A stretch of 64,000 nt of DNA from Candidatus Poseidoniales archaeon (GTDB lineage: Archaea > Thermoplasmatota > Poseidoniia > Poseidoniales > Poseidoniaceae), in contig QQSA01000078.1 of the NCBI GenBank assembly GCA_003602535.1, positions 4,405 through 68,404 of the forward strand, given 5' to 3'. Positions 29,216 through 57,974 of the stretch are shown one piece after another. A program made the translations under genes and the position numbers. Under the pieces are notes generated by a model. That model had not been told where the DNA came from. It did not search any database and saw only the letters and a program-made list of their open reading frames with translations. Numbering within the stretch: position 1 is the stretch's first letter; the number at the start of each line of letters is the position of its first letter.

Positions 29216-30280
29216 TTATACTTTAGAATTCTTGGATATTTTTCTTAGCAGATTCTCGGCACTAAATCTTGGGCAGTACTTTTGCCATAGATGGGAGACT
29301 GGGACCCATATCAAAGTGTAAATCAAAACAACCAACATTGAAGTTGTTAAACTCCAATCATTAGTTTCATTCAGTGAATGGAATAAGCCGATTGGAATGA
29401 AGTGGAGCAAGTAAACGCTTAGAGAAAAATGCCCTAGTGGATTGAGAATGGTAGTACCGATCATTTGAATGAGCATCCACAGAATCGATACTCCGGTCAG
29501 TGCAGCGATTATGAATGGGGCATTGGATGGGAAAAAAGTAAGCGTTGCATCTCCGGATGGAGTAGCCCATTTCAAATCATTTTGAATCGAATAGAATAAT
29601 GTGATTACACAAAATATTAGTCCACTTGATATCGATAAGATACTTCCTTTTGTTACAGGTAATGTTCGCTCAATTCCTTGTTGAGAAGCGATCCATGAGC
29701 CAAAAATTGCGAAAATAATCCAAGGGAATAACGGATATGTTCCTGTCAAAATCGAGTGGCTAATCCATGCAAGAACAGTACTGGTCTCTACCCTATCATC
29801 CCATTGACTAGAACCTTGATAACTCCCTAAAAGGTATACTGAAGTCAATATCAACAATATCGAGACCCATACAACAATTGTTTGTTTATCTTGGTACTTC
29901 TCAAATAACTGCACCCAAAATGGTTGAGTCAGAATTAGAAGCGCAAACAAAGTTAGGACGCCGGGCGTAAATGGTTCGAACAAATGCGGTGCTGAAAGGT
30001 TGATTGCGATTTGTGCTGTAAACAAAAACATTGCACGGATTATCCGTTGCTTCGATGTCGCTGTTGAATGAAAACAACCCCACCCAAAGATAGTAACGAA
30101 TAATGGAGCTGCGAGTCCCCCAAGGCCAGATACTACATACACTAGAATTGATGATTGACTACTAGCACTAGGGCCCCAACTCGCAGCAGCATGAACCATT
30201 ACCATCAATAGAACTGCAACCGCACGAATCGAATCGATATGCTCGACACGTTGGCTCATGAAATGTGCTTGCAGATGCAC
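29216..30280 (-). CDS. Multi-TM membrane protein, acyltransferase-3/DUF1624-like
   Basis: N-terminal RVEHIDSIRAVAVLLMVMVHAA is typical of acyltransferase_3/DUF1624 membrane enzymes. About 9 TM helices. Confidence 0.45.
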   Translation of the reverse strand: MHLQAHFMSQRVEHIDSIRAVAVLLMVMVHAAASWGPSASSQSSILVYVVSGLGGLAAPLFVTIFGWGCFHSTATSKQRIIRAMFLFTAQIAINLSAPHLFEPFTPGVLTLFALLILTQPFWVQLFEKYQDKQTIVVWVSILLILTSVYLLGSYQGSSQWDDRVETSTVLAWISHSILTGTYPLFPWIIFAIFGSWIASQQGIERTLPVTKGSILSISSGLIFCVITLFYSIQNDLKWATPSGDATLTFFPSNAPFIIAALTGVSILWMLIQMIGTTILNPLGHFSLSVYLLHFIPIGLFHSLNETNDWSLTTSMLVVLIYTLIWVPVSHLWQKYCPRFSAENLLRKISKNSKV

Positions 30281-30350: not shown

Positions 30351-33300
30351 TCAGTCTCTACGAAGTAGAGCAGCACCTAATAGGCCGATTGTCGCAATAA
30401 TTCCAGTAAATCCTGGAAGTGCTGGGTTCTCATCTGAATAAGAATCTGCTTCTTCGGAATATAGACGTGCTGTATTCCAATCTTCATCAACATCTAGAGT
30501 TGAATGATCAATCATTATGACATCTCCAGTTGTTAAACTATCACTGGAATCAGTATCCATGTACATGATTGATAATCCTGAAGTCATCATTTCATCTTCA
30601 GTCACTTGAATATCGGATAGTGTCATCGACCATATATCATCAGAGCAATCTAGGTCATTCAGATTCTCATCTTCATCTAAGTCGTCACAGTTTGCAAGAG
30701 TTAGGCTGTAATCATTCAATGATCCTCCGATTCCTCCATCCATTCCAACTACTACTAGGACTTGCATAGAGTCAGTGATGTCGCCACCATCTTCATCCAT
30801 ATCTTCCATAGCATCCATCATATTTTCGAATTCAGCGAAGTTCAGTCCACCGCTATCATCATCATCATACATGTCAACCATGTTTGAAAGATGGTTTTCT
30901 TCTTCACTGGACATAGTTTCGCCATCTTCATTGTTTTGATTTGCAGAATATATCCATTCTTCAGAGGTTACTTCTCCATCGTTATTTGCATCGATAATCA
31001 AGAAAATAAACTCGAGGTTTTCTTCCATATCATCATCCATTGCGTCAAACATATTCATGAATTCATCGAAATCCAATCCACCGTTTTCGTCATCATCATG
31101 CATAGCAAACATTGCTGCAAATGCATTGTAGTCTTCATCAGTCAATGGTTCGTCGTCTGAATTATTAGCCATCTCTGTCCATTCTAACAAGGTGACTTCG
31201 TCGTCATCATTAGTATCAATCATAGCAAACATGATTTCTGGAGAATCTTCCATGTTTCCACTTTCGATTTCCCACATCATATCTGCGAATTCAGTAATGT
31301 TCAATCCTCCACTCTCATCTTGGTCATACATGTCAAATAATACAGACATGCGGTCGATATCATCTTGGGTAATTTCTTCTCCATCATCAGATTCGTTAAA
31401 CATCTCAGTCCATTCGGTTAAGGTGACTTCACCATTTTCATCAGAATCCATCATATCAAACATCGTATCGATATCCATTGGCTCAGGTGAATCCATTAAG
31501 ATAAGATAACCACTCATTGTCGATGAATCGTATTCATAAAGAATCAAGATTTCGTATTCACCATCATCAATAAGGAATGCATGTCCATCAGCATCTACCA
31601 TATTTCCTAACCATTCAACACAAATTTCAGTAGCATTATTGAAATCTCCGTGGCAACTTTCGTAATCATCCATGAATATATCCCATACTCCGGTTGAATT
31701 GAAAATAATCTCTCCAGTTTCGCACATAGTTGCGTTGTCTTCATTTTCCCAGCATTCTTCGTAAAGTAAGTGCTCTGGCAAAGTCATAGTGGTTTCAGTG
31801 AATGTGTAATCCATATCAGTGACCATTTGTCCACACATTGAATCATCTAAGTTTGTACTGTCAAAGCTGGAATGGTTTCCATCGTTGAAATCAACTACAG
31901 CTAGACAATGGTAAACCATTTCATCATCATGACCATCGTGACGCATACATTCCCAACCCGGTTCAAGATCAGTACACTCATCCATTTCATAACCATCGCT
32001 TTCCATTATGTTACCATCAGAATCAACCCAATCATTCATCCAGCATTCGTAATAACTGTCCTCAGGATCGGTGCTTTCTGTACATCCATCATAGTAAATT
32101 GGTTCATCGTAATAGTGATCGTCGTGGTCGTCATGAGCTTCATCTTCACCATCAGGACAATCATCAGTTCCGTCATTCACTTGTGAAATCCAAACTTCAC
32201 TTCCATCCATACAATCGAACCAATTGATTTCATTTCCATCTGTGTCATATTGTTGCTCATCTGCTCCATCATCGCAATCAGCATCACCATCATTTACGTA
32301 GTGGAATGGAATTTCTGATCCATCTCCACAGATGAATGTTGGACCATCATCGTGGTCGTGGTCGGAGGAATGGTCGCATTTGTCTGGAGACCACATATTT
32401 TCAACCATACAATTGAGGTAAGAAAGCTCGTCGACATCCAAAAGACCATCGCTATCAATGTCGCTATTGTTAAACATATAATCGATGCTATCCGAGTCGT
32501 ATCCTTCTGCCAATCCGTCGTTAGTTAGATCCAAATATACACAATCATCTAATTCGTACCAGTCTAACATTAAGTCGCCATCAGAATCACATTCAGACAT
32601 TTCACGATTAAACGTCCAATATGGATCGTTGCCGTCGTCGTCATCGTCGCCTCCATCCATGCTGGTCCACATGTATCCTGCATCCCAACAATCATCTTCT
32701 TCATGGATATCTACAATTGTATGAGTTTCGATGTCGTAACATACCATTCCTTCATCGTCGTGGCTGTGATCATGGTCATCTCCAAACTCATTCATGTCCA
32801 TTAGCATGAAAGGAAGGGCATGTTGCTCAATACTTTCGTCAATAGAAATGTCACCTGAGTTAAGCAATTGGAATTTTACCCAGTTGTCTTCATTCTCAAC
32901 ATCCATAAGGTCGAATCCTGTTATTTCCATATCCGAGTTTGTGTACACATTCATAGCGCCAAATGGTGCGTCTTCGACATTTAGCATTCCACTAAATGTC
33001 ATTCCGCTATCTGTAACTTCAAATCCAGAAAATGTTGCTGATACAGGATCGAAAATACCAGTGTAGTCATCTGATTCTGGGTTTTCATCCTCTTCTTCAT
33101 CCATATCGTCGCCGTCATGGTCATCACCATGTTCATCGCCATGGCCATCGTCAGTAATCCAAATTCCACCAGAATCTTCACAATCTTCTTCGTTATCTAT
33201 TGAGTAATCATTAGTATGAGTATTCATGTCATGGCATACCATTTCGTCACCCATATCATCATCCATGTCTTCATCATCATTGCCCATGTTGTAAATAGAT

Positions 33301-33872
33301 TCGAATGTGCCTGAATGAGACATGCGTAGTTCCATCGATTGTTCATTGCCTTCATCATCAGTTCCTGTCATCGAATATTGAATTTGATTACCATAGTAGA
33401 TTACTTCTTCAGTACTGAAAGAGTCACCATATCTATCCTCAATACTAGATTTAAGACCGTCTGGAGAAACTAGCACAGTTTCCATGAAATACCAAACTTC
33501 TTCAGAAACTGAAGGACAACCGTTGTATGGCTGGCTTTCATCAACCAAATCAGGATTCCAATATTCCCACTCTTCACATTCATCAGTATTCGCATAAACC
33601 TCGGAAACTTCCATCGAGAATCCAATAGTAGTGTCAAGAGTTTCGATATCTGGGCCTTCATCCATGAAATTGATGAATTCTACAATTGCTTCTTCAAGTT
33701 CTTCTTCTGAAGAGCAGAGATCATCCTGAATATCTGTCGCTTCTTCGTTGTAATTAAGGGCGTCTTCATCCCCACATCCAACAATTTCTATTTTGTCTTC
33801 AGCATCTTCTGCATCTAAGCATCCAGCTAGAAGTAAAAGTGCAGTCAAGCATATGGCTATCGCTTTGTCCAT
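30351..33872 (-). CDS. Giant (1173 aa) hyper-acidic secreted calcium-binding protein with an N-terminal Cys-pair module, LDLa-like Ca-cage motifs, three tandem EF-hand-pair repeats and a C-terminal PGF-CTERM archaeosortase sorting signal
   Basis: Signal peptide MDKAIAICLTALLLLAGC. The sequence is D/E-rich throughout. LDLa-like: CGDGSEIPFHYVNDGDADCDDGADE and CMDGSEVWISQVNDGTDDCPDGEDE. Canonical EF loops include DSDENGEVTLTEW, DQDESGGLNITEF, DTNDDDEVTLLEW, DDDENGGLDFDEF, DANNDGEVTSEEW and DDDDSGGLNFAEF. C-terminus is PALPGFTGIIATIGLLGAALLRRD. Confidence 0.8.
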   Translation of the reverse strand: MDKAIAICLTALLLLAGCLDAEDAEDKIEIVGCGDEDALNYNEEATDIQDDLCSSEEELEEAIVEFINFMDEGPDIETLDTTIGFSMEVSEVYANTDECEEWEYWNPDLVDESQPYNGCPSVSEEVWYFMETVLVSPDGLKSSIEDRYGDSFSTEEVIYYGNQIQYSMTGTDDEGNEQSMELRMSHSGTFESIYNMGNDDEDMDDDMGDEMVCHDMNTHTNDYSIDNEEDCEDSGGIWITDDGHGDEHGDDHDGDDMDEEEDENPESDDYTGIFDPVSATFSGFEVTDSGMTFSGMLNVEDAPFGAMNVYTNSDMEITGFDLMDVENEDNWVKFQLLNSGDISIDESIEQHALPFMLMDMNEFGDDHDHSHDDEGMVCYDIETHTIVDIHEEDDCWDAGYMWTSMDGGDDDDDGNDPYWTFNREMSECDSDGDLMLDWYELDDCVYLDLTNDGLAEGYDSDSIDYMFNNSDIDSDGLLDVDELSYLNCMVENMWSPDKCDHSSDHDHDDGPTFICGDGSEIPFHYVNDGDADCDDGADEQQYDTDGNEINWFDCMDGSEVWISQVNDGTDDCPDGEDEAHDDHDDHYYDEPIYYDGCTESTDPEDSYYECWMNDWVDSDGNIMESDGYEMDECTDLEPGWECMRHDGHDDEMVYHCLAVVDFNDGNHSSFDSTNLDDSMCGQMVTDMDYTFTETTMTLPEHLLYEECWENEDNATMCETGEIIFNSTGVWDIFMDDYESCHGDFNNATEICVEWLGNMVDADGHAFLIDDGEYEILILYEYDSSTMSGYLILMDSPEPMDIDTMFDMMDSDENGEVTLTEWTEMFNESDDGEEITQDDIDRMSVLFDMYDQDESGGLNITEFADMMWEIESGNMEDSPEIMFAMIDTNDDDEVTLLEWTEMANNSDDEPLTDEDYNAFAAMFAMHDDDENGGLDFDEFMNMFDAMDDDMEENLEFIFLIIDANNDGEVTSEEWIYSANQNNEDGETMSSEEENHLSNMVDMYDDDDSGGLNFAEFENMMDAMEDMDEDGGDITDSMQVLVVVGMDGGIGGSLNDYSLTLANCDDLDEDENLNDLDCSDDIWSMTLSDIQVTEDEMMTSGLSIMYMDTDSSDSLTTGDVIMIDHSTLDVDEDWNTARLYSEEADSYSDENPALPGFTGIIATIGLLGAALLRRD
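30820..31470 (-). repeat. Three tandem ~65-aa EF-hand-pair repeat units within the acidic protein gene
   Basis: Repeated DxDx(D/N)GEVTxxEW ... DxDx(D/S)GGLxFxEF units are visible in the translation and as similar DNA blocks. Confidence 0.6.
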
Positions 33873-37281: not shown

Positions 37282-38220
37282 TCAACCGACTTTTGTGGAG
37301 TTTTTTTCTAGCACCAATGGAGAACTAACCGAAACCATCATCGCGATTAACACTCCTAGCAATACATGGTTTGCCAAATCTGTTTGTAATGTAAGTAGCA
37401 TTGGGCTAAGCGCTATTCCAAAACGCCACCCCCAAGCTTCTGGCCGGGGATGTGAATCGAAACCGAGCAGAGGTAATAGCATCCCTAGTAGACCGATTCC
37501 AGTAACTGCAACTACCAACCATAACGATACTGCAATTGCCCCATTATCACTACCGATTCTATCAACATTAGATATTGAAACATAAGTCAATGCCAAGATG
37601 AATATTATGCCAATTAAAGTCGATGCACCCAGTGCTAAAGAACGGCCTTGGCCACTACCAATTTTAGGATTTATTTTTTGCTCAAAATATGGCATGAACC
37701 CAATCAATATTGCTGATGAAATAATTACTGACAAAATCTCACCATTGAATATCTGAGCTCCTAATTGCAATATGATAATGGTAACAAGCATCAATAAGCT
37801 CATTCTGCCATCAAAGGATACAGAATTGACTAACAATTGTGCGAGTAACAAACCAATAATTACAGCCTTGACAAACTCTTGTAAATTGGATGAAGTAGTA
37901 TATTCATTTACAGACTCATATACTCCTTCCTCTGGATATAATGCCAATAGTAGCAATAAGATAATTCCTCCACTCATTCCATTGAGATATTTTCTAATGC
38001 CGCCACTTTTGATTCGATATTGTATCAAACAACACATGCTCAATACAATCACCAAAACTAATCCTCCTGATTGCTGAATGGAATCGAAAGGGAGTGAGAA
38101 AAATGCTAGACCACAAAGAGCCGCAGTAATGCTTGCCAACCATTCACCTTTCTCGAAAATCGGAGAGATCAGCATGGCCAAAGCGGACAGAAAAGCAAGG
38201 GTGGTCAGTGTTTCTGCCAT
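37282..38220 (-). CDS. Polytopic membrane protein (about 9 TM), function unknown. The ORF-track start 38370 would overlap the divergent methyltransferase gene, so the internal Met at 38220 is preferred.
   Basis: Continuous hydrophobic helices (LTTLAFLSALAMLISPI..., GGLVLVIVLSMCCLI..., GGIILLLLLALYP... and others). Confidence 0.45.
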   Translation of the reverse strand: MAETLTTLAFLSALAMLISPIFEKGEWLASITAALCGLAFFSLPFDSIQQSGGLVLVIVLSMCCLIQYRIKSGGIRKYLNGMSGGIILLLLLALYPEEGVYESVNEYTTSSNLQEFVKAVIIGLLLAQLLVNSVSFDGRMSLLMLVTIIILQLGAQIFNGEILSVIISSAILIGFMPYFEQKINPKIGSGQGRSLALGASTLIGIIFILALTYVSISNVDRIGSDNGAIAVSLWLVVAVTGIGLLGMLLPLLGFDSHPRPEAWGWRFGIALSPMLLTLQTDLANHVLLGVLIAMMVSVSSPLVLEKNSTKVG

Positions 38221-38290
38221 AACACCCCCACGCAGAACTGAGCCATTAGACTTGCACAAGCAAGAAGAGTGAGATACCTGAGCCGCAACC

Positions 38291-39982
38291 ATGGTCCGAC
38301 CAGCCGACGAGGATTTACTCGAAGCGCTAGTTGAGACTCCATTAACTGGTTTAGCCAAAATTCTGGACATAGATATTGAGCGTTGGTTACCAATAGCATC
38401 CTCACCACTACCAATTACAATGCGTGTAACACCTGGAAGGCATGATATTGAATGGACTAGAGAGATGTTAGAATCAATTGGCGGTAAGAGAATTTCTTGG
38501 CTAAATTCAATTGAATCTTGGACTATGCCATTCTCTAAAGGAGATTACCCAGACCAATATTCAAAGAAGATTTTGATGCTATTGCACGAAACTGGAAGAA
38601 TTACTCGGCAGGAAGCGGTTTCGATGCTGCCCCCTGTTGTGCTAGAACCTGAAGATGGGACTCTAGTGATGGACACTTGTGCTGCACCTGGATCGAAAGC
38701 AACGCAACTTTCTGAAGCAGTACCAAATGGTTTGGTTCTTGCAAACGAGCCTTCTTCGGGGAGATTGAACTTGTTAGTCACCAATAGGGGCAGACTTGGC
38801 ATTGAAAACATGTTAATCATGCAACATGATGGAAGGCATATCGGAAGAATGCCTGAACCTGGAGTGGATGGAATAGTAGTAGACGCCCCTTGTAGTGGGT
38901 CAGCAACAACAAGAAAAAATAGAGAATTATGGAATTCTTGGACACCAAAGGTTGGAAGAAGTCTGTTCAAACTTCAAGTCGATATCGCTTACCGTGCAGC
39001 CCAATTACTACGCCCTGGCGGAAAAATAGTTTACTCTACCTGTTCTCTAGATCCCATTGAAAATGAGGCTGTCGTTTGCGAAATCTTGCAAAAATGCCCT
39101 TGGTTAAAGCTTGTAAATATTGATTCGGAAAGGTTGTTTCCGGGACTTATTGTTCATCGCGGAATAGATAATTGGCCTATACTTGATGAGAGTTCAAATA
39201 TTGTAGATTGGCAAGGGCAGATGCCAAAACTTCCTGGATTGTCTGAAGTAATGCTTAATCCAGAACAAAGAGGGGTTGAAGCCCCCGACCTATCTTCAAC
39301 CATCAGAGTTCATCAACACGATAATGACACAGGTGGATTCTTTGTTGCATTATTCGAGCATGTGGCTGAGAGAACTCCTGAGGGAGTTGCTAGGTCGATG
39401 ATATTGAAACGTGAATTGAACAGGGAGCCTGAACAATTACCACGTCAGAATAAAAATAAACATTCTACAGAAATTGCATCACTTGAAACTGTTTCAAAAA
39501 TATGTGACAAATGGGGCATTGACAGGGAGATGTTCACTTGGTGGCAACGTGGAAAAAGAGTTAATCTTTCGAATAAAATCGCTTATGACCGACTGTTCAA
39601 GCCAACCGTGGTAAACAAAAAAGGAGATTTTTGGCCAGGAGAAACATTCCATCCACTGCGCGTAATTCATGTCGGCCAACCAGCGTTCACAGATAACAAA
39701 GGGTTTTGGAGAACTCGTCAAGAGGCGCTTGAATTACTTCGACCGCACATTACTAAGGGATTGATTGAAATTGATGAGGAAACCATGATTTCAATGTTAA
39801 AAGGTCGAGCCCCACTTTGCGAAGACTTCCCTGCTGATGTCGAAAAGGGTTCTTCAATACTGAGATGTGGTGAGTTCCTGCTCCCGGTTTGGATTGCTGC
39901 GAGAGTTTCATTGATGATAGACCAAAAAGAACAAGATATTCTTCGACTTAAGTTAAACATAGAAGAGGAGGAGGAAGAATGA
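38291..39982 (+). CDS. NOL1/NOP2/Sun-family RNA (cytosine-C5)-methyltransferase with a C-terminal extension
   Basis: VMDTCAAPGSKATQL is the SAM motif I. VVDAPCSGSATTRKN is motif IV with the catalytic Cys. KIVYSTCSLDPIENEAVV is motif VI with the TCS Cys. Confidence 0.85.
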   Translation: MVRPADEDLLEALVETPLTGLAKILDIDIERWLPIASSPLPITMRVTPGRHDIEWTREMLESIGGKRISWLNSIESWTMPFSKGDYPDQYSKKILMLLHETGRITRQEAVSMLPPVVLEPEDGTLVMDTCAAPGSKATQLSEAVPNGLVLANEPSSGRLNLLVTNRGRLGIENMLIMQHDGRHIGRMPEPGVDGIVVDAPCSGSATTRKNRELWNSWTPKVGRSLFKLQVDIAYRAAQLLRPGGKIVYSTCSLDPIENEAVVCEILQKCPWLKLVNIDSERLFPGLIVHRGIDNWPILDESSNIVDWQGQMPKLPGLSEVMLNPEQRGVEAPDLSSTIRVHQHDNDTGGFFVALFEHVAERTPEGVARSMILKRELNREPEQLPRQNKNKHSTEIASLETVSKICDKWGIDREMFTWWQRGKRVNLSNKIAYDRLFKPTVVNKKGDFWPGETFHPLRVIHVGQPAFTDNKGFWRTRQEALELLRPHITKGLIEIDEETMISMLKGRAPLCEDFPADVEKGSSILRCGEFLLPVWIAARVSLMIDQKEQDILRLKLNIEEEEEE

Positions 39983-42355: not shown

Positions 42356-43339
42356 ATGGGCGATTCGCGTGAGCTGTGGCCGGACGAGTATACAGTGTTC
42401 AATATTCTGTATGATAAATTTCTTTTCTGGTCAATAGTTGTCGGCCTGTTCACATTTGCATGGCTCTTAATCGCTGTACTGCGATACAGAGAAGGCATAG
42501 AGCCAGCAGGTAAAGAAGAGATCAAGGTCGGTACATTCCCGAAAGAACGTCACAACTTTGATCTTGAATTGGCTTGGTTCGTTGGACCAACGATTTTGGT
42601 CATATGGGTTACAATACTCGCTTTCGGTTCAATGAACATTGTTTGGGGAGAAGTTGCAGAGTTACAAAACGATGATGATTCATTTACTGTAGAGGTAAAT
42701 GGGCTGCAATGGTACTGGGACTTTTACTACCAGGACCAACTTACATGGGAAGACATGGACACCGGTCATGATGTCACATGGAACATCACATCTGGATTAA
42801 CGATCAACCCAGGACCTGGTGCCGTAACTGCTGATGTCACATACGGGGCTAGCACTGCGAAATTAGATCTTGCAAACAATACTACAATGGATGTTTTATT
42901 CAATGAATTGATATTCCAGAGCGTCGATATTTTAGATGCTGATGGAGACATAGTCCATCGCTGGCAGCACATTCCAGTAGAACACAAAATGAGCGGGGAT
43001 TTGATTATCCCGTGTGATACTAACGTTTTATTCAACATCCATAGTATGAATCCTGAGAGAGAGGCAAACTTTGACCCAACCAGTACATACCAAGGTGTTC
43101 AACATGCATTCTGGCTCCAAGAATGGGGCATGAAAGAAGATGCAGTTCCTGGGCTTGAAGGTGGAACTTGGATGTATGTCCAGCCTAACGAAGCAGGCAC
43201 ATTCCCTATCCGGTGCGCAGAATATTGTGGGAAAGAGCATTCATTGATGTATGGTCAAGTCGAGGTTGTTGCAGTCGAAGGTAAGACCTGTGACGAAGAC
43301 TTCGGTGTTTACTTTGAACATGAGGAGTTGAGAGAATGA
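42356..43339 (+). CDS. coxB: Cytochrome c oxidase subunit II (CuA subunit)
   Basis: Two N-terminal TMs. VNGLQWYWDFYY corresponds to the QWYW(S/T)YEY box. The CuA ligands are present as H...CAEYCGKEHSLMYG. Confidence 0.85.
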   Translation: MGDSRELWPDEYTVFNILYDKFLFWSIVVGLFTFAWLLIAVLRYREGIEPAGKEEIKVGTFPKERHNFDLELAWFVGPTILVIWVTILAFGSMNIVWGEVAELQNDDDSFTVEVNGLQWYWDFYYQDQLTWEDMDTGHDVTWNITSGLTINPGPGAVTADVTYGASTAKLDLANNTTMDVLFNELIFQSVDILDADGDIVHRWQHIPVEHKMSGDLIIPCDTNVLFNIHSMNPEREANFDPTSTYQGVQHAFWLQEWGMKEDAVPGLEGGTWMYVQPNEAGTFPIRCAEYCGKEHSLMYGQVEVVAVEGKTCDEDFGVYFEHEELRE

Positions 43340-45633
43340 GGGGCAGGACCATCGCAGTTCTTGCAATACTCCTAGTTGCGTTAGCATCGACTACAACGTT
43401 CGAAGCTAGACAAAATGGAATCGGTATTGGCGACAATGGATGTTCATGTCACGGTGAAATGACCGGAGATACTGTGATCACTGTAGAAGGCCTTCCAGAT
43501 GTCTTCAACGCTTCTGAAGAATATCTGATTACTCTAACAATTTCAAATGACGATGTTCCAGCGTCAAACCCTGACCAAAATGGTGGATTTAGAATTGTTA
43601 CCTCAGGAGGAGGGCAACTGGAATCTGTTCCAGACATTGATAGAAATGTCGCTAATGATGACGATGGTGGATTAACACACACTTTGGAACTTAACGATAG
43701 AAGAACTTGGGAATTCAAGTGGACTGCTCCTGCAGATGATACCGCAATCGTTGAGTTTACTATCTGGGGCAATGCTGTAAATGGAGATGGTGCAGCAACA
43801 AACGATGACGATTGGAATCGTAAAGATATCTCGGTCATGGGAATCAATGCTAATCCTGCAGCCCCAAGCGCTGCAGCATTAACGATTCTAATGACTGCTA
43901 TCGGTTTAGCTCTTGGATTGATTCTAATCGGCAGCATGTGGGTATTCTACACACGCAACCCTGACACTTTCTCAATTGGTAGTTTCTGGGCTTACCTCAA
44001 ACCTTGGTTAACAACTACGGACCACAAGCAGGTCGGCATTCTGTACTTCTTGTATGGTTTCTTCTTCTTCCTAGTAGGAGGATTGCTGGCGCTATTATTC
44101 CGTATACAGTTGGCGCTACCAGAGAACGATTTCCTTACTCAAGCAGAGTACAACTCATTCTTCACCCTCCACGGAACCACTATGATTTTCTTGGCTGCTA
44201 TGCCAATGATTGCTGGTTTCATGAACTACATCTTGCCACTACAGATTGGTGCTAAAGATCTGGCATTCCCTAGAATTAACGCTCTAGGTTTCTGGCTAAT
44301 TGTGGCTGCTGCTCCATTGATTTTCACTGGAGTTTGGAGTGGAGAGGCTGCTGACATCACATGGGTTATGTATCCTCCATATTCAAGCCTAACAGGGCAA
44401 GCTGGTGGGCCAAACCCTGGAACGATAGCCTTCATTTCCGGTATTGCATTACTTGGTGCTTCTTCGACACTATCAGGTGTCAACTTCGTAACCACTACCT
44501 TCACCATGCGTGCAAAGGGCGTAGGATGGATGAGAATGCCATTATTCACCTGGTCGGTTCTAATCAGCGTTTTCATGCTCTACGTGAGCCTGCCTGCTTT
44601 CGTTATCGGCGTATTCTTCTTATTGTTTGATTCGACTATAGGTACTACTTTCTTCACAGCGGGTGGAGATCCTCTACTGTTCCAGCACCTATTCTGGTTC
44701 TTCGGACATCCGGAGGTATATGTTGTCGTAGTACCTGCATTCGGAATTGTTTCCGAAGTTCTTGCAACAAGTGCAAGGCGTTCTATCTTCGGATACAGAT
44801 CAATGGTTTATGCAATGGTTGGAATCGGAGTAGTAGGATTCATTGTATGGGGACACCACATGCTAACTAGTGGAATGAGTCCTGGCTGGCGTGCTGCTTT
44901 CATGATTACAACTATGGCGGTAGCGATCCCGACTGGTGTGAAGATTTTCAATTGGCTAGCTACTCTGTGGGGAGGAAGTCTGGTATTCAAAACGCACACA
45001 CTTTGGTCGCTTGGATTCCTGATTACATTCACACTTGGTGGATTATCTGGAATGTTCTTCCCTGTTGCAGGACTAGATACGCAATTCCATGACGGATACT
45101 TCGTTGTTGCACACTTCCACTATGTGTTCATCGGAGGTATTATCTTCGCATTATTCTCAGGAATTTACTACTGGTTCCCGAAGGTTACTGGTCGTAAAAT
45201 GGATGAAAAGCTAGGTCTCTGGCACTTCATTATAGCATTCTGTTCATACAATGCTGCATTCTGGCCAATGCACGCCGTAGGAATCATGGGAATGCCTAGA
45301 AGAACACACACATATGCTGTAGATTCTGGATTCGCTGAATTAAACATGGCAATTTCTACATTCGCAATTATATTCGGACTATCTCAATTAATTCTGGTTT
45401 GGAATATTGTTCGCTCAGTAAAGAAGGGCGAAAAGGTCGGAAAGGATCCATGGGGTGGCTGGTCTCTAGAATGGGCAGTAACCTCTCCTCCTCCAACACC
45501 TTCTTTCGATGTAGAGCCTACTCAATTGGATGCAAACGAAGGTGCAGAGCATCATGAAACTAAGTTAGAATCAATATTGCGTTCACCATTCCGGGCGATT
45601 AGTAATCTATGGAATAAGGAGGCGAAAGTATGA
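43336..45633 (+). CDS. coxA: Cytochrome c oxidase subunit I (heme-copper oxidase) with a ~180-aa N-terminal extracytoplasmic extension containing a CxxCH (CSCH) motif
   Basis: Core: GTTMIFLAAMPMIAGFMNYILPLQIGAKDLAFPRINALGFWL; HPEVYVVVVPAFGIVSEV; GHHMLTSGM; YFVVAHFHYVFIGG. Extension: signal peptide MRGRTIAVLAILLVALAS, then NGCSCHGE in an acidic beta-rich domain. Confidence 0.9.
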   Translation: MRGRTIAVLAILLVALASTTTFEARQNGIGIGDNGCSCHGEMTGDTVITVEGLPDVFNASEEYLITLTISNDDVPASNPDQNGGFRIVTSGGGQLESVPDIDRNVANDDDGGLTHTLELNDRRTWEFKWTAPADDTAIVEFTIWGNAVNGDGAATNDDDWNRKDISVMGINANPAAPSAAALTILMTAIGLALGLILIGSMWVFYTRNPDTFSIGSFWAYLKPWLTTTDHKQVGILYFLYGFFFFLVGGLLALLFRIQLALPENDFLTQAEYNSFFTLHGTTMIFLAAMPMIAGFMNYILPLQIGAKDLAFPRINALGFWLIVAAAPLIFTGVWSGEAADITWVMYPPYSSLTGQAGGPNPGTIAFISGIALLGASSTLSGVNFVTTTFTMRAKGVGWMRMPLFTWSVLISVFMLYVSLPAFVIGVFFLLFDSTIGTTFFTAGGDPLLFQHLFWFFGHPEVYVVVVPAFGIVSEVLATSARRSIFGYRSMVYAMVGIGVVGFIVWGHHMLTSGMSPGWRAAFMITTMAVAIPTGVKIFNWLATLWGGSLVFKTHTLWSLGFLITFTLGGLSGMFFPVAGLDTQFHDGYFVVAHFHYVFIGGIIFALFSGIYYWFPKVTGRKMDEKLGLWHFIIAFCSYNAAFWPMHAVGIMGMPRRTHTYAVDSGFAELNMAISTFAIIFGLSQLILVWNIVRSVKKGEKVGKDPWGGWSLEWAVTSPPPTPSFDVEPTQLDANEGAEHHETKLESILRSPFRAISNLWNKEAKV

Positions 45634-46946
45634 GCGGAAGTCTACACGATGTCAAGAATGAGATATGGATGAAGACTGTCCTTATCTCTGTAGGACTGAT
45701 TTTCGCTGGAATTACCGCTTACGCAGTATTAGCGGAAGGTGTCGGTTCAGTAAAGCATCACGAGTGGGAAGAAGCTCACCATGATGTCGAAGAAGCAAAA
45801 GCGGAACTAGATGCAATTTCGGTAACTAACGCTTCATCTGAAGACAAAGATGCTGCTTACGATAAGTGGGAAGCTGCTGTAGATGCTGATGTCGATGCAC
45901 ATTTATCTTATCTAACTTGGAGTACAGCTGGAAAAACTATCATGGTTATGTTCATTGTTTATGCTGCATTCTACGGCATCGCAGGGTTCTACAATAGTAT
46001 TCAACCTGAAGAAGAACACCATCATGGTGATGATCACGAAGAACATCACGGTTCGGCATCTCCAATTTTGATGGCCGGCGGTCTCCTTCTATTCATGATG
46101 GGCTTCCCTGGTTTCGTCACCACGTGTAAAGCGTGGCTTGGACTTGACTATACTGCAGATATGTCAGGATTCATGCTGTCGGCAATAGGTTCAGTAATCC
46201 TGATTATTGGAATCGGTAATTGGTGGAATGAAGATCTAAAGGGCCACAAAGAGCAAATTGCTACATCACACCCATTCAAGGGACAAGATATTCGTAAGGC
46301 TGGAATGTGGATTTTCCTAATCTCTGAAACTATGGTTTTCGCATCATTCTTCTCATCTTACCTCAGAATGAGAACCGAATGGTGTACACAGTGGGCTGTA
46401 AACGCTGGAAAGTGTGATGTTGTAGACACATACACAGCTTCTGATTACTTGCGCCCTGGTGGAGCAACAGGTACTGGAGACTTCTGGACTTTGCTTCCTG
46501 GTGGAATAAACACATTCGCATTGATTATCTCTTCATACACCATTGTTCTGGCATTGAAGGCTGCAAAGAATGTCAATTGGGAACCATCAAAGAATAAATT
46601 GATGGCACGCTTATTCCCAACAAGAAAACAAACCGTACGCAATTATCTACTGATTACGTTAGCATTGGGTTCACTGTTCATAGTTTTGAAATTGATTGAA
46701 TGGAGCCACTTAATCGCTGAAGGTTTCACAATCGATAGTCAGGCAGGTTCGATATTCTATGTAGCAACCGGAGCACACGGATTGCACGTATTCATAGGAT
46801 TGCTAGTAATGTTATTCATGGTTTTCAAAGCCGATACTGTTGGCTATGATGAAGAAAATGGCCAAGGAATCGAGTACTTTGGATTGTATTGGCACTTTGT
46901 GGATTTGGCGTGGGTTGCCATCTTCCCAGCATTCTATCTATACTGA
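45630..46946 (+). CDS. coxC: Cytochrome c oxidase subunit III with a ~200-aa N-terminal extension (extra TMs and His-rich loops)
   Basis: The C-terminus FYVATGAHGLHVFIGLLVMLFMV...YFGLYWHFVDLAWVAIFPAFYLY is the canonical CoxIII end. The extension contains HHEWEEAHHD and EEEHHHGDDHEEHHG. Confidence 0.8.
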   Translation: MSGSLHDVKNEIWMKTVLISVGLIFAGITAYAVLAEGVGSVKHHEWEEAHHDVEEAKAELDAISVTNASSEDKDAAYDKWEAAVDADVDAHLSYLTWSTAGKTIMVMFIVYAAFYGIAGFYNSIQPEEEHHHGDDHEEHHGSASPILMAGGLLLFMMGFPGFVTTCKAWLGLDYTADMSGFMLSAIGSVILIIGIGNWWNEDLKGHKEQIATSHPFKGQDIRKAGMWIFLISETMVFASFFSSYLRMRTEWCTQWAVNAGKCDVVDTYTASDYLRPGGATGTGDFWTLLPGGINTFALIISSYTIVLALKAAKNVNWEPSKNKLMARLFPTRKQTVRNYLLITLALGSLFIVLKLIEWSHLIAEGFTIDSQAGSIFYVATGAHGLHVFIGLLVMLFMVFKADTVGYDEENGQGIEYFGLYWHFVDLAWVAIFPAFYLY

Positions 46947-46955
46947 GGCGATAAC

Positions 46956-47360
46956 ATGGGCGAAGACAAGTATACAGGACCAATTGCAGGATTATTCCAG
47001 AAAATGGCAGATATGATTGGAAAGGATGTTTACTACGTAAATTTCCTAGTTCTGATGTTCTTTACATTATTCGAAATCGCAGCGGTATTCTTTGAAACCG
47101 TGCCAGGAACCGATATCGAAATTACTAGAGATGCTGTTTGGGGCATTCTCATCGTTGTTGGAATCATCAAGGGTTACGGAATAGCTGCATTCTTCATGCA
47201 CTTGAAAGGAGATCCATTCATTTACACAAGAACGGCACTTTTCCCTGTTCTTTTCGCTGCATTGATGCTATGGGGTATCGGTTTATCCAACCCGGATGGA
47301 ATTGATGCATTGCCATCTTGGTGTACACCAAATTATGACTACTCATATGTTACCGAATGA
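46956..47360 (+). CDS. coxD: Small membrane subunit of the oxidase operon, prokaryotic CoxIV-like
   Basis: 134 aa with 3 TMs and the FMHLK box (GYGIAAFFMHLKGD) typical of bacterial/archaeal subunit IV-like proteins. It sits directly after coxC. Confidence 0.55.
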   Translation: MGEDKYTGPIAGLFQKMADMIGKDVYYVNFLVLMFFTLFEIAAVFFETVPGTDIEITRDAVWGILIVVGIIKGYGIAAFFMHLKGDPFIYTRTALFPVLFAALMLWGIGLSNPDGIDALPSWCTPNYDYSYVTE

Positions 47361-47418: not shown

Positions 47419-49167
47419 ATGCGCTTTTTTGCTGCACTCATTGTGACTTTGCTCTGTGTTTCAACAATTCCTGCAACTACCGCTGGTGGCGATGGAGTTC
47501 ACTGGAATGGATATAATCTGGATAGAGAATCTGTTCAAAATAGTGTATTAATTGATCAAGATGGAAATAATTACGCACTACATACTGGAAGTGCTGATGT
47601 CAATGTAGTTGCTTTCATATTCACTACTTGTGTTGACGTATGCCCTGTAATTACCAGCAATCTGGTAGCTGCTGAATCAAAATTAGATGATGTCGATTAT
47701 CAATTCATCTCAATCACAGTAGACCCTGCAACAGATACGCCTGAAGTTCTGAAAGAGTATACCGATGAATTTGATGTTGATTGGCCTCACTTAACAGGAG
47801 ATATATCTGATTTAGAAGAGGTATGGTCAGATTTTCAAATCGCTGTAGAAACTGAAGTTATTGAAACAGATGACCATAATCATGACGTGGAGACTCCAAA
47901 AATCGTTCCTGAAGACTATTCAACGGTTACTGTAGTTGATTCTAGTGAAAACGCTGACTTGTTTTTCGTTGAGCCAAACGGATGGGACCAGCTGACTGCT
48001 GCAGAATACCAAAACAATTGGACGATTAACGCCAGTGAAAGTCAATGGGGTCATTACATTACTGGAGTAAATGGTGATGATTCTCCAAGTGATTATTCAT
48101 GGTGGTGGGAATTACATGTATGGAATATGTCTACTAATGCATGGGAAGAGAGTAATGTTGGAATTGATTCTGTCGATGTTGGCCAACTTGCGCTTGCCCC
48201 AAATACAACCGATGATACATTGATTCCAATTCCAGATATGGAAAATGATACATTCGTCATAGTTCAATCTGATGGGCAAAATGATTCTTCAGTGTTAAGT
48301 GAGATATCTGCTTGGCATTTGACCCTAGCTGCATTGGATTCATTCGATGCACCCTCTTCATCATTTGGCCACTACATGTCCTCGATCGATAATTTAAGTG
48401 CCCCTAGTGATTACTCATGGTGGTGGCAACTCCATTACTGGAATTTTACAAGTAATTCTTGGGAAGAAAGCCAGTATGGGATGGATAATCTATACAATCA
48501 AACCCATATTGCTTGGGCACCAAATAGTACATCTGATTCATTGATTCCTGTACCTGAATTTGAAGTTATGACTCACAAATTAGGAGTTGTATATCCAGGA
48601 GGAGATACTGCAATGTATACTGGTAATTATACCAGAATAGAGATGGTAAATGCGATGGAGCATTCGATTTACACTCTAGATCAAAGTGATTCAAATTACG
48701 TCATGGAAGGAGATTCGGCAATATCCATTGATGGTAATGATGGTGATTACAATCTATACATTTGGCATGAAATGGGAGAATATAGCCATTGGATGTCAAC
48801 ATCCGATAGCAGCTTTGAAAGCTATCTTGTAGATGATTACAATCACTATGCATGGGTTGCTAATGGAGAAGATGCTTCAAGCCTCCCTAATCCTGAGATG
48901 GAAGAGAGCCATAATGACAATCAAACAACAACATCAACATCTCATTCGACACAAACATTCATTCTCGATGAAGATTGGAAACCAATAGTAGTATTCTTAG
49001 GATATGATTGGAATGTTGATGATTTCGTTGAAGATGTTGAAAGGGCCGCAAATAGTGTGAGTAATCCTAGCAGTGATGATGACGATTCCGGATTACCGGG
49101 TTTCACCTTTGTAACTGTGGCAACAGGACTTGGTCTAGCGATTATCGCTAACAGTAGGGAAGAGTAG
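47419..49167 (+). CDS. SCO1/SenC copper-chaperone domain fused to an acidic Trp-rich tandem-repeat region, with a C-terminal PGF-CTERM sorting signal
   Basis: Signal peptide. VNVVAFIFTTCVDVCPVITSNL is the thioredoxin-like CxxxCP Cu site of Sco. Two ~95-aa repeats are present (GHY..SPSDYSWWW(E/Q)LH.WN.(S/T).N.WEES..G(I/M)D...APN(T/S)T(D/S)D(T/S)LIP(I/V)P(D/E)(M/F)E). C-terminus is DSGLPGFTFVTVATGLGLAIIANSREE. Confidence 0.7.
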   Translation: MRFFAALIVTLLCVSTIPATTAGGDGVHWNGYNLDRESVQNSVLIDQDGNNYALHTGSADVNVVAFIFTTCVDVCPVITSNLVAAESKLDDVDYQFISITVDPATDTPEVLKEYTDEFDVDWPHLTGDISDLEEVWSDFQIAVETEVIETDDHNHDVETPKIVPEDYSTVTVVDSSENADLFFVEPNGWDQLTAAEYQNNWTINASESQWGHYITGVNGDDSPSDYSWWWELHVWNMSTNAWEESNVGIDSVDVGQLALAPNTTDDTLIPIPDMENDTFVIVQSDGQNDSSVLSEISAWHLTLAALDSFDAPSSSFGHYMSSIDNLSAPSDYSWWWQLHYWNFTSNSWEESQYGMDNLYNQTHIAWAPNSTSDSLIPVPEFEVMTHKLGVVYPGGDTAMYTGNYTRIEMVNAMEHSIYTLDQSDSNYVMEGDSAISIDGNDGDYNLYIWHEMGEYSHWMSTSDSSFESYLVDDYNHYAWVANGEDASSLPNPEMEESHNDNQTTTSTSHSTQTFILDEDWKPIVVFLGYDWNVDDFVEDVERAANSVSNPSSDDDDSGLPGFTFVTVATGLGLAIIANSREE

Positions 49168-49210: not shown

Positions 49211-49293
49211 GCGGAGATCGCATAGCCTGGTATTGCGGTGGACTTGAAATCCACTGTCCCTCGGACACGGGAGTTCGAATCTCTCTCTCCGCG
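49211..49293 (+). tRNA. tRNA-Ser (anticodon UGA), class II with a long variable arm. No encoded CCA.
   Basis: Manual fold: acceptor GCGGAGA/TCTCCGC. Anticodon arm GTGGA-CTTGAAA-TCCAC, giving anticodon TGA. Long variable arm GTCCCTCGGACACGGG. T-arm GGGAG-TTCGAAT-CTCTC. Discriminator G. Confidence 0.8.
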
Positions 49294-49363
49294 CTTAACT
49301 ATCATTACCTATTGTATCTCTGAGATGAAAGGGTTCAACAACTCAAGCCACCGTAGGTGGTTC

Positions 49364-50743
49364 ATGTCCCGCACATATGCACGGCTGGCGTTGCCGCTGG
49401 TTCTTCTTATGTTCATGGCAGGATGTATTTACTCCTCGACTCCTGAATGGGGTACAGGTGATGGGGAAGTACATGTCGAAATCGATGACGAAGATAAAAC
49501 TGCTACAATTAAATCACAGTTAGGAAATGGATTTGACAAAACTGTAACCTTACAATGCGATGCAAAGGAGTTTACTATCACTGGAATGATTATTTCATCA
49601 CAGATTTATGATTCTCATCCAGATATCGAAGAAGGAGATATTGATTCGGCCATGGGTGCGTCCGTAATTATCCATAAGATGAGTTGGAGTCAAGCTGAGG
49701 GCGTAGAAGAAGGCAGTGCGGAACGAGTCAAAATCAAGGAATGGACATCTCCACTGGATCCTGTAGAAGATGGGGGATTAAGTAAGGTCGATGAAAATTC
49801 AGAAGATTGGGAAGTTATCGGAGTTATCCCTGGTTCAGAAAATATAGCTGATGGGCTGAATGTTCTCGAGCATTGGCATCAGCCAATCAAAATATCAGGA
49901 TATATGGTCCCTGTAGATCAGGCTGGCACAATAGGTCCAGGCCCAGATTGCGAATTAGAAGAGCAAGGCCACGGGATGATTGTTACCAAAATCAAAACCG
50001 GAGAAGGTGTCGTCAGCATGGACGGGGAAGACGATGATGAGTATTCATTAGGAGATACCGATTTATTCGGAGGATGGACGTTCATCCTATTCTTCTTGAT
50101 TGTTGGAGTAGGCGGAGGTATTGGTCTATTCATGGTATCAACAATGGTAATTCGACAAGGGGCAAGAGCAACCGCTGAAGCTTTGCTTGGAAGAGAAGGT
50201 TTTGCTAAAGCTATACAAATGAAAAAGGATGTGAAATCATCGAAAAAGGCCGGTCTTGAAAGTGCATCTGATCGTGCTGCTAAACAAAGGGCTAGTACGC
50301 CACCACCGAAAAAGGAAAAGCGAGAAGAAGTTGAAATTTCGGGCTTCAACCTTGATAGTGTGCTATCGGCATCAGGTAATGATGATGAAGGCCCGTCTAA
50401 ATTTGGAGGCGGGGGCTCTGTTGTCGTCACTAATGAAGCTAAACAAATACAGTCTCAACCAGTGGTAACTTCTGCACCGGTGAAAATCGATAATACGCCT
50501 ATGCCGTCATCAAATGTAACCTCTAGTCGACCTGAACCTGAAAAGAGAGGTCACTTCTCAGCATCGATGTCGAGTTCAAGAATTTCTTCGAAGCCAAGTT
50601 CTGAAAAACCTGTTAACAAGCCAGTAAAGAGACGAGCGGTCAAGAAGCGTGCGGCGAAGTCTGCGCCTGAACCTGAGCCTGAAGTGCAAGAGCGACGTGC
50701 ATCTGTTTCTGATGATGAAGAGTTTAGTGACTTCTCATTCTGA
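49364..50743 (+). CDS. Hypothetical membrane lipoprotein-like protein with an extracytoplasmic domain, one TM and a long Lys/Ser/Pro-rich disordered C-terminal tail. The ORF-track start 49238 lies inside the tRNA.
   Basis: MSRTYARLALPLVLLMFMAGC is a signal peptide with a lipobox-like Cys. TM: WTFILFFLIVGVGGGIGLFMV. The tail is rich in K, S and P with EPEPE. Confidence 0.45.
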   Translation: MSRTYARLALPLVLLMFMAGCIYSSTPEWGTGDGEVHVEIDDEDKTATIKSQLGNGFDKTVTLQCDAKEFTITGMIISSQIYDSHPDIEEGDIDSAMGASVIIHKMSWSQAEGVEEGSAERVKIKEWTSPLDPVEDGGLSKVDENSEDWEVIGVIPGSENIADGLNVLEHWHQPIKISGYMVPVDQAGTIGPGPDCELEEQGHGMIVTKIKTGEGVVSMDGEDDDEYSLGDTDLFGGWTFILFFLIVGVGGGIGLFMVSTMVIRQGARATAEALLGREGFAKAIQMKKDVKSSKKAGLESASDRAAKQRASTPPPKKEKREEVEISGFNLDSVLSASGNDDEGPSKFGGGGSVVVTNEAKQIQSQPVVTSAPVKIDNTPMPSSNVTSSRPEPEKRGHFSASMSSSRISSKPSSEKPVNKPVKRRAVKKRAAKSAPEPEPEVQERRASVSDDEEFSDFSF

Positions 50744-56540: not shown

Positions 56541-57974
56541 TTGAATATGAAGTGGTTTGAAGAAAACAATGACCGCTTCTGGATTGGGTTATTAGTGGTC
56601 GCTGTTCTGCTAAACTTATTCGCAATTCACAACTCAGATTTGGGACTTGATGTTCATGTTAAGTCGGCTTATGTTGAAACTGACGATGGCTATGTCTTGG
56701 ATTGGGGGGATACACGACAAAGCGATCCAAACGCATCCGACCCTGAACAGGCCACTGTAATCGATTCCCCTCCTGCGATCCTGCCACCAATTGTGAGTCT
56801 AATTTTGTTGATTCTAGTCTTTCTTTTACTCTCTCGCCATAACAACAACATACCAATAATTGGAATAATATTACTTCACCCTACACTAATTTTTTCTTCA
56901 GGGAAATCGTATGATGAGTTAATGATTCTATCAATTTTTGGCGCTGGAGTCTTACTGCTAAATAATGCGTACACTCGTTCTGAAAATTCAAATGTTGCAC
57001 TCAGTTCAAAACTAGTAGCATACGCTGTAATGATTGGTGCAATAATGTTCAAATTGAATTTCGATTCATGGCTCGAGTTGTTTGTAATTGGAATTGCCAT
57101 AGCCACTATAATTAGCATATACATTCCGAAATTAGAACTCAATCCAAGATACATTTTGGTTGGAAGTTTTTCATTAGGAATGATTACTATTATTGGTCTC
57201 GGTGTTGTAGGCTATGGTACCTCAAAAATTATTGTAGATGAACCGATTAGATTCCTTTATTCCTTACCATTTGCAATGTTTGATTTGATAATAATATATG
57301 CAATATTTGGAATGATATTGTGGCCTTATGTCAGTTCTACATGGAGAAAAATGGGAGATGTGAAAGATGATTTAACTTGTGAACTTTCACTGATTGTTGG
57401 AGGAATTGCCGGATTAATCACTGCATATGTTGCAGTATTATGGACATATGAATCGGTTCTGTGGGATTCTGAGTGGCCATGGCATATGCTTACTATGGGA
57501 AATAATGGAAGATACATCACCCTTCTTGCAATACCACTCTGGATCTTGATAAATAGAGTAAATGGAGAAATAGATTGGAAAAATAAGAAATTATTCATCG
57601 GGATATTGCTGATTATGCCATTCTCTCTTCTAGCAGGTTTTCATGGTCAAACGATGTGGACTGATGATGCTGCAGATTCGATGGAATTAGAAGAAGGAGA
57701 ACATTTCTTATTTGTCTCCGATGCAACACTCGGAATGCATTGGTTGTATACATTTCATGAACCGCTCAATGCTGAAGAAAACAATATCACAGGTCATTGG
57801 AGAAGTGATCAATCCTCTTGGATCGGCGATTTAGATGGCGAACTTAGTCATATAGATTGGATTGTTTTGTCACCTGAAATTGATGATGTACCGGATGGTT
57901 GGGAGGTCAAAGGTTCGGGAACCGCTGATTACCTAAACGGTGGAGGAACTTGGCGTATACTTGTTAGGTTATGA
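56541..57974 (+). CDS. Polytopic membrane protein (at least 10 TM) with a C-terminal soluble domain; function unknown
   Basis: ORF from the track. Hydrophobicity pattern only. The first extracytoplasmic loop contains ETDDGYVLDW. Confidence 0.45.
   Translation: MNMKWFEENNDRFWIGLLVVAVLLNLFAIHNSDLGLDVHVKSAYVETDDGYVLDWGDTRQSDPNASDPEQATVIDSPPAILPPIVSLILLILVFLLLSRHNNNIPIIGIILLHPTLIFSSGKSYDELMILSIFGAGVLLLNNAYTRSENSNVALSSKLVAYAVMIGAIMFKLNFDSWLELFVIGIAIATIISIYIPKLELNPRYILVGSFSLGMITIIGLGVVGYGTSKIIVDEPIRFLYSLPFAMFDLIIIYAIFGMILWPYVSSTWRKMGDVKDDLTCELSLIVGGIAGLITAYVAVLWTYESVLWDSEWPWHMLTMGNNGRYITLLAIPLWILINRVNGEIDWKNKKLFIGILLIMPFSLLAGFHGQTMWTDDAADSMELEEGEHFLFVSDATLGMHWLYTFHEPLNAEENNITGHWRSDQSSWIGDLDGELSHIDWIVLSPEIDDVPDGWEVKGSGTADYLNGGGTWRILVRL

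Follow-up and report, generated by a model that had tools for sequence, protein, structure and literature searches.

Why does a predicted copper chaperone carry tandem tryptophan-rich repeats, where do these lie relative to its metal site, and what could they contribute to the handling of copper at the cell surface? The question is raised by a gene at positions 47419..49167 (+) of a 64,000-nucleotide stretch of DNA from a Candidatus Poseidoniales archaeon (assembly GCA_003602535.1, contig QQSA01000078.1), referred to below as the window, in whose numbering all coordinates are given; the open reading frame is real and encodes 582 amino acids (aa) followed by a stop codon. The uncultured Poseidoniales (Marine Group II) rank with the most abundant archaea of the surface ocean, and it is on the copper supply for their aerobic respiration that the answer bears. 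A reading of the letters made before any database search (the sequence-only reading) had described the product as a Sco1/SenC copper chaperone fused at its C-terminal side to two novel repeats of about 95 aa, an acidic region and a PGF-CTERM signal, with lipid anchoring dependent on archaeosortase A (ArtA). The analysis reported here places the repeats inside the Sco domain, between its copper ligands, and assigns them to a known domain type; in the Sco identity and the insertion topology of the gene product we have high confidence.

The assignment to the Sco family was borne out by Pfam, whose SCO1-SenC model (PF02630; cutoff 22.8 bits) matches aa 44-151 and scores 78.1 bits, and by the CVDVCP motif found at aa 71-76, while a scan of the protein with NCBIfam returned nothing; with Pfam and NCBIfam applied both to the intact protein and to the insert alone, SCO1-SenC was the sole family detected. 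The Pfam match ends at profile position 115 of 134, and when aa 157-503 are spliced out it grows from profile positions 6-115 to 6-131, with a score of 86.6 bits. Alignment to the Sco protein of B. subtilis (1xzo) places C71 and C75 on C45 and C49, and H509, which lies far beyond the end of the original match, on the copper ligand H135. The segment that follows the repeats, TSTSHSTQTFILDEDWKPIVVFLGYDWNVDDFVEDVERAA, resembles the end of a Sco domain, and in an AlphaFold model of the whole protein, built on a family alignment of 73 members (mean predicted local distance difference test, pLDDT, 86.1; predicted template modelling score, pTM, 0.51), it is folded into three strands (aa 504-508, 512-516 and 522-527) and a helix (aa 533-545), each predicted at a pLDDT above 90.

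The Sco fold thus closes with 45 residues, the ligand His among them, that come after the repeats, which makes the latter an insertion within Sco, and alignment, splicing and model together place this insertion in the loop directly preceding the His ligand. The repeats are therefore not a C-terminal fusion, and what had been taken for an acidic region after them is a third repeat followed by those 45 residues with the copper-ligand His. The N-terminal two thirds of the Sco fold (aa 28-150, 47500..47868, +) contain the copper-binding and redox Cys pair C71-V-D-V-C75 (47629..47643, +), and the C-terminal third (aa 504-548, 48928..49062, +), made of three strands and a helix, contains H509 as the third copper ligand (48943..48945, +), so that the thioredoxin-like fold is complete. 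All three ligands are invariant in the 73 aligned sequences, at an atypical spacing of 434 residues from the Cys pair to the His, because three folded domains have been inserted in the loop before the His, enlarging it by about 350 residues. Judged from its sequence, the gene product is a Sco1/SenC-type copper chaperone or thiol-disulfide oxidoreductase with an intact C71/C75/H509 copper site. It is strongly acidic (17.7% D+E versus 1.7% K+R), and a Sec-type signal peptide at aa 1-23 (MRFFAALIVTLLCVSTIPATTAG, 47419..47487, +) can be inferred from the letters, read without a dedicated predictor; the model places a helix at aa 2-15, and the start is conserved in homologs.

The insert begins with a linker at the N-terminal junction (aa 149-165, ETDDHNHD..., 47863..47913, +), which is disordered in the model (pLDDT below 50 at aa 149-162) and His-rich in the family, aligned columns of the junction holding His in 60, 45, 28 and 22 of the 73 sequences. 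It continues with repeat A (aa 166-275, 47914..48243, +), repeat B (aa 276-382, 48244..48564, +) and a degenerate third copy, repeat C (aa 383-495, 48565..48903, +), in which the model reproduces the order of secondary structure of the other units. Pairwise BLAST of the segments gave 40% identity between A and B over 107 aa (E 1e-30), 31% between C and B (E 1e-7) and 25% between C and A, and a profile built from homologous units scored A, B and C with 132.7, 128.5 and 60.6 bits. The internal tandem repetition noticed in the sequence-only reading is thus upheld, as are the motifs on which it rested (SPSDYSWWWELHVWN at aa 222-236, APSDYSWWWQLHYWN at aa 328-342, and APNTTDDTLIPIP and APNSTSDSLIPVP), though the period has to be corrected to about 106 aa and the number of copies to three, one of them degenerate. 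Among the other open reading frames of the window the repeat profile found nothing better than E 0.14.

The nature of the repeated domain could be determined only with the help of structure. Unit B, modelled alone on an alignment of 41 diverse units (pLDDT 92), is a beta-grasp with a hairpin inserted after the helix, and structure comparison identified it as being of the DUF4430 or transcobalamin-beta type, matching the B12-binding beta domain of transcobalamin. The transcobalamin-like clade, which corresponds to Pfam DUF4430 (PF14478), belongs to the soluble-ligand-binding beta-grasp (SLBB) superfamily (Burroughs et al. 2007, PMC1796856). Sequence alone was insufficient for this assignment, and the link that it provides is indirect: PF14478 (gathering threshold 23.8 bits) matched neither the window protein nor repeat B at E<=1 and picked up only 2 of the 41 family units, weakly (best E 0.0036), and the repeat profile found no match among PDB sequences at E<=10. 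When the profile was searched exhaustively against 1.84 billion representative sequences, as the sequence-only reading had proposed in outline, the repeat was indeed found elsewhere, in Sco, ZnuA and other hosts, with matches in 155 clusters at 50% identity; bona fide DUF4430 was called by Pfam in 19 of the 66 non-Sco matches scanned, with 51-266 bits (266 in P0209, 101 in P0125). The structure and these profile links to PF14478 proteins together make the "SDYSWWW" repeat a divergent subfamily of a known domain and not a new fold, so that the novelty claimed for it falls away, with the window copies remaining below the Pfam threshold. A literature search returned no functional work on prokaryotic DUF4430.

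The partners of the domain among the same 66 proteins are PQQ-like propellers (19), ZnuA (10), EF-hands (7), SLH (5), plastocyanin (Copper-bind, 4), PKD (4) and NosD (2), with CARDB also occurring in generic surface proteins. In P0200 and P0234 the domain lies N-terminal to a plastocyanin-like cupredoxin with a PGF-CTERM tail. P0161, one of the two NosD hosts, combines the domain with NosD and MopE copper-binding motifs, and P0273, a member of the P0161 cluster, is assigned by NCBI to a Candidatus Altiarchaeales archaeon.

The split Sco architecture is not peculiar to one assembly. It was found in 235 homologs; where a source name is given, the label reads "SCO family protein" or "cytochrome oxidase Cu insertion factor", with Poseidoniaceae, Euryarchaeota or Thermoplasmatota as the organism; with the same arrangement in these homologs and in about 80 species, an assembly chimera was rejected. 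The best 80 loci in contigs taken from one genome per species are all from Poseidoniales except for two, L067 (NZEQ01000060.1) and L076 (CALDQY010000018.1), which stand in metagenome-assembled genomes assigned to Verrucomicrobiales and Rhodobiaceae and carry a Poseidoniales-type split sco; these assignments are probably binning errors. The architecture has thus been made by the insertion of a known, poorly understood domain into a known family, and its distribution is lineage-wide.

The number of units varies within this distribution. Counted at species level, on the 79 complete orthologs obtained from the 80 genome loci, 68 have two units, 10 have three, as in the window, and one has a single unit; forms with one and with five units also occur outside this set, and in some relatives the third position is occupied by a Cys-rich module. 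In P0099 and P0101 (325-339 aa) there are no repeats at all, and a low-complexity tract of about 100 aa rich in His, Asp and Glu (HDDHSGHDNHSDD...) stands at the identical insertion point. A further set of Sco relatives with one or two repeats (P0111, P0153, P0174, P0203, P0212, P0231, P0237; P0154, P0155, P0239, P0123) have an N-terminal lipobox in place of the C-terminal anchor, as in P0111 and P0153, or His-rich ends (...HDDHSGHDHH); at locus L085, P0203 lies beside a second, ordinary Sco gene and not beside a cox operon.

A second metalloprotein family provides a parallel. The top-scoring non-Sco proteins found with the repeat profile are zinc- or manganese-binding proteins of the ZnuA type. 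In P0151 and P0163, both annotated as Poseidoniaceae and the latter encoded in a znuA-znuC-znuB operon, the N-lobe of ZnuA ends near aa 122 and the chain that aligns to AdcA resumes at "DPHxW" 400-530 residues further on, the intervening segment being made of long His/Asp tracts and an SLBB domain of the Sco type, with an EF-hand as well in P0151. Among 120 Poseidoniaceae homologs of ZnuA such a domain was found in 66, in every case placed between the ligand motifs H[DE]YE and DPHxW; the inserts, 315-706 aa long and with 9-16% His, stand at the position of the canonical His-rich loop. Insert-bearing ZnuA proteins comprise P0151, P0163, P0279-P0395 and the product of locus L084 1513-3540, and many of them contain EF-hands. 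The His-rich loop of S. pneumoniae AdcA stands before the ligand His140 and, jointly with an accessory domain, helps to recruit zinc when the metal is restricted (PMC7858048).

The genomic setting of the window gene is that of an oxidase assembly factor, as the sequence-only reading had supposed: sco is the last gene of a coxII-coxI-coxIII-coxIV-sco operon for a heme-copper oxidase containing CuA. The likely client, coxII (42356..43339, +), matches Pfam COX2 and bears the CuA motif CAEYCGKEHSLM at aa 287, and it is followed by coxI, with an N-terminal extension of about 230 aa, coxIII and coxIV (together 43336..47360, +; Pfam COX1, COX3 and COX4_pro), in an order that is kept in three related loci (L001-L003). 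On this evidence the most likely function of the Sco protein is maturation of the CuA centre in CoxII, whose gene lies four genes upstream.

From these observations we consider modestly probable, as an explanation of the whole, a Sco protein for CuA assembly that has acquired a lineage-specific accessory cassette in its metal-site loop. The protein would be exported by means of its N-terminal signal peptide and kept on the outer face of the membrane by its C-terminal hydrophobic tail, and the loop insert consists of a short His-containing linker and three tandem SLBB/DUF4430 beta-grasp domains, which are probably N-glycosylated. Flexible His-rich linkers would capture copper where free copper is scarce, and the folded domains would serve as a rigid, protease-resistant scaffold that projects and protects them, in an arrangement that has its analogue in ZnuA/AdcA with their His-rich loop and accessory domain. 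The specific role thus given to the insert, that of a metal-site-loop accessory recruiting scarce seawater copper, is drawn by analogy and is put forward tentatively, as falling somewhat short of probable. It is favoured by the His-rich columns of the N-terminal junction, by the His/Asp tract that P0099 and P0101 carry at this site in place of repeats, by the ZnuA inserts that likewise stand before a ligand motif, and by the plastocyanin and NosD/MopE hosts.

Several observations weigh against this account of the cassette. The junction linkers of the window protein itself carry just two or three His, and the arrangement of the domains relative to each other in the whole-protein model is uncertain, at a pTM of 0.51. 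What the domain conserves across hosts of both kinds, Sco and ZnuA, is of a structural nature (five Trp, Gly and Pro, a single Asp and the Asn of a sequon), and the copies of the domain in these two hosts have no set of His, Cys or Met in common; direct metal coordination by the domain was therefore rejected, and metal binding by the domain itself is improbable. It is moreover found together with beta-propellers, PKD and SLH and is therefore not confined to metal proteins. The contribution of the inserted domain could accordingly be purely structural.

The alternative that survives best takes up these points and denies the insert any metal role: it would be a lineage-specific structural decoration (a glycosylated spacer, a tether to the S-layer or envelope, or a docking surface for an enlarged CoxII) tolerated in the surface loops of several exported Poseidoniales proteins. 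Apart from the structural character of the conserved residues and the presence of the domain in generic surface proteins that also contain propellers, PKD, CARDB and SLH, it is favoured by the freedom of the copy number (0, 1, 2, 3 and up to 5), with a third position that can be exchanged for a Cys-rich module, and by the N-x-S/T sequons, of which 11 of the 12 in the protein lie inside the insert, two of their positions being conserved in about 60% of units. These sequons fit a glycosylated extracellular scaffold, and for multi-domain proteins of this kind it has been suggested that the domains fused beside SLBB may serve as tethers to the cell surface (Burroughs et al., PMC1796856). What decoration leaves unexplained is why the domain should occupy the loop directly preceding a metal-ligand His, in His-rich surroundings, in two unrelated folds, Sco and ZnuA, and why a His/Asp tract should replace the domains at that very site in P0099 and P0101. 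We regard it as possible, if somewhat unlikely.

Transcobalamin owes most of its contacts with B12 to a domain that forms an alpha/alpha toroid, a point that matters for a second alternative, in which the inserted SLBB domains would truly bind a soluble organic ligand, such as metallophore-complexed copper or a corrinoid or tetrapyrrole, and present it beside the Sco metal site. The match of the fold to the B12-binding beta domain speaks for it, as does the definition of the SLBB superfamily as soluble-ligand binders, the extracellular prokaryotic members being predicted scavengers, in archaea possibly of "a distinct metabolite" (PMC1796856). The hairpin region "GHY.T.I.G", which matches the ligand-contacting insert, is well conserved within the Sco repeats, the five invariant Trp per approximately 105 aa could form an aromatic binding surface, and metal proteins (Sco, ZnuA, plastocyanin, NosD/MopE) are over-represented among the hosts. 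However, the Sco protein lacks the toroid, the copies hosted by ZnuA do not conserve the His of "GHY", no set of polar ligand residues is conserved across hosts, and no genes for transport or biosynthesis of such a ligand lie nearby in the window, all of which makes ligand binding doubtful. A broader proposal that spans both hosts also seems unlikely as it stands: the Trp-rich SLBB cassette would be a previously unrecognised trace-metal acquisition module of Marine Group II, placed beside the ligand His of Sco and ZnuA, which would capture organically complexed metal or organise His-rich arms and pass metal to the adjacent site. If true, it would be an adaptation of an abundant heterotroph of the ocean to free Cu and Zn at sub-picomolar levels.

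The remaining alternative is the model with which the locus was first described, and it turns largely on the C-terminal tail. The Sco fold is followed by an acidic Ser/Asp linker (aa 549-558, NPSSDDDDSG, 49063..49092, +; pLDDT below 50 at aa 549-559) and by a tail of LPGF, 15 hydrophobic residues and NSREE (49093..49164, +; helix at aa 561-580 in the model), the C-terminus of the protein being GLPGFTFVTVATGLGLAIIANSREE and the C-terminal peptide of the tail TFVTVATGLGLAIIANSREE. A hydrophobic tail of the PGF type is therefore present, and the protein can safely be said to carry a C-terminal membrane anchor as predicted from these letters. Neither TIGR04126 (cutoff 24.5 bits) nor PF18204, on the other hand, matches at E<=10, whether on the whole protein or on tails of 34-45 aa, while with TIGR04126 a Haloferax-type tail taken as positive control reaches 50.7 bits, the tail of the repeat-bearing non-Sco protein P0234 26.7, and tails of family homologs 7.9-19.3, so that PGF-CTERM could not be confirmed. 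Of the tripartite layout expected at the extreme C-terminus (PGF, hydrophobic helix, basic cluster) PGF and helix are present, and the end, N-S-R-E-E, has one basic residue, close homologs having RR. In family alignment A1 no variation is seen at P560, and conservation of G561 is at least 90%; in the 79 complete orthologs the motif reads PGF in 20, PGM or PGL in 26 and otherwise in 33 (PSV, PFL, PSL, PAL, PWA and so on), with Pro alone constant. In Haloferax, permutation of PGF to PFG blocks processing by ArtA (PMC6098224). Six polytopic membrane proteins of the window were tested and none is an archaeosortase: among the candidates rejected, 29216-30280 is an acyltransferase of the Acyl_transf_3 family, 9510-10970 is RseP-like and 23973-26234 presenilin-like, and 37282-38370 and 56541-57974 have no significant family match. 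A literature search found no link of PGF-CTERM or archaeosortase to Marine Group II, Poseidoniales or Thermoplasmatota. Since the tail fails TIGR04126, PGF drifts in the orthologs and no artA was found in the window, ArtA-dependent anchoring is unproven.

The model in which a novel repeat domain follows the Sco module as a C-terminal fusion, and in which archaeosortase A cleaves the protein at PGF for lipid anchoring, is very improbable. It can call on the exact P-G-F with its hydrophobic stretch, Arg and acidic linker, on the conservation of P560 and G561 and on scores of 19.3, 21.0 and 26.7 bits for a family tail, another PGF tail of the window and the repeat-bearing non-Sco tail, but its topology is contradicted by splicing and alignment and its fold novelty by structure. 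Against its anchoring stand the unmatched tail, the one basic residue followed by two acidic ones in place of a basic cluster, the motif variants of the orthologs, the lack of any archaeosortase among the polytopic membrane proteins tested in the window and the negative literature search.

A second PGF-tailed protein does exist in the window, as had been stated. Encoded at 30351-33872 (-), it has 1173 aa, of which 30% are Asp or Glu, with EF-hands and an LDL-receptor class A module, and it combines an N-terminal lipobox-like "LLLAGC" with a PGF tail that by itself scores 21.0 bits with TIGR04126, below the cutoff, which suggests a possible dual anchoring. Two giant surface proteins, of 1708 aa with PA14 and LamG (1383-6509, -) and of 1665 aa with CARDB (13054-18051, +), each end in a transmembrane helix and an acidic tail. 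The presenilin-type intramembrane protease homolog (23973-26234, +) has an N-terminal extension of about 500 aa, and the product of 37282-38370 (-) is a protein of 362 aa with about 9 predicted transmembrane helices and no match in Pfam or NCBIfam.

Closer to sco, the gene immediately downstream (49238..50743, +) encodes a family-less single-pass protein of about 500 aa, with no match in Pfam or NCBIfam and with synteny in L001-L003; relatives with as little as 35% identity still have the order cox-sco, this protein, a diacylglycerol-kinase-like gene, ribD. The protein, found also at 9248-10813 of L001 and 9768-11252 of L002, has a long cytoplasmic tail rich in Ser, Pro and Lys and always follows sco in Poseidoniales, and it may be a functional partner of Sco. 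The extension of CoxI (43336-44028, +) is extracytoplasmic, with a signal peptide, "NGCSCHG", a beta-rich region and an extra transmembrane helix, and has no Pfam match; CoxI is of similar length in related loci (772-775 aa), and the extension could be an electron-entry or metal-binding module. CoxII has 327 aa, with the Pfam COX2 match limited to aa 244-303, and its counterpart in L001 has 214 aa, so that the CoxII of the window may carry an extracytoplasmic insertion of its own.

Compared with known Sco1/SenC/PrrC proteins (B. subtilis Sco/YpmQ, 1xzo; B. anthracis, 4hde; A. thaliana Sco1, 6n5u; T. thermophilus Sco1, 2k6v), the window protein has the CxxxC and distal His at equivalent positions, and like them it is extracytoplasmic, membrane-tethered and encoded with a CuA oxidase. 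It differs in the gap between Cys pair and His, which is 434 residues as against 86 in the B. subtilis protein (C49 to H135), and in its anchor, which is C-terminal in contrast to an N-terminal transmembrane helix or lipobox. To our knowledge no Sco with a domain insertion has been described, and a literature search, which was not exhaustive, returned none and nothing on Sco in Marine Group II. Some 350 residues of folded domains between the copper ligands constitute an unusual architecture in a very well-studied family, and the finding corrects the annotation of proteins that are labelled only "SCO family protein" and in which the Pfam match stops after two thirds of the Sco domain.

With solved DUF4430/SLBB domains (5no0, 4kkj, 2pmv, 2bb6, 3u7z) the Sco repeats have in common the beta-grasp core, whose helix is followed by additional short strands, the extracellular location and the frequent tandem arrangement, and their profile recovers proteins called DUF4430 by Pfam. 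They differ in being only 13-20% identical to the solved members and below the threshold of the Pfam model, in carrying the signature S-W-x-W-x-L-H-x-W-N and A-W-A-P-N-S/T-T, and in lacking an alpha/alpha toroid partner, being inserted inside other domains and not added as a terminal module. The tail resembles those of PGF-CTERM/ArtA substrates such as the S-layer glycoprotein of Haloferax volcanii in its P-G-F, hydrophobic helix, charged end and preceding acidic, Ser-rich linker, and differs from them in scoring below the thresholds of both hidden Markov models, in its single Arg followed by Glu-Glu and in the drift of the motif among orthologs. With ZnuA/AdcA, finally, the window protein shares a flexible His-rich element right before a metal-ligand His, and the same SLBB domain is found in the corresponding loop of Poseidoniaceae ZnuA; the analogy is one of position and presumed role only, Sco being an unrelated fold that handles copper, and the occurrence of one domain at equivalent positions in both provides a concrete, testable hypothesis for prokaryotic DUF4430.

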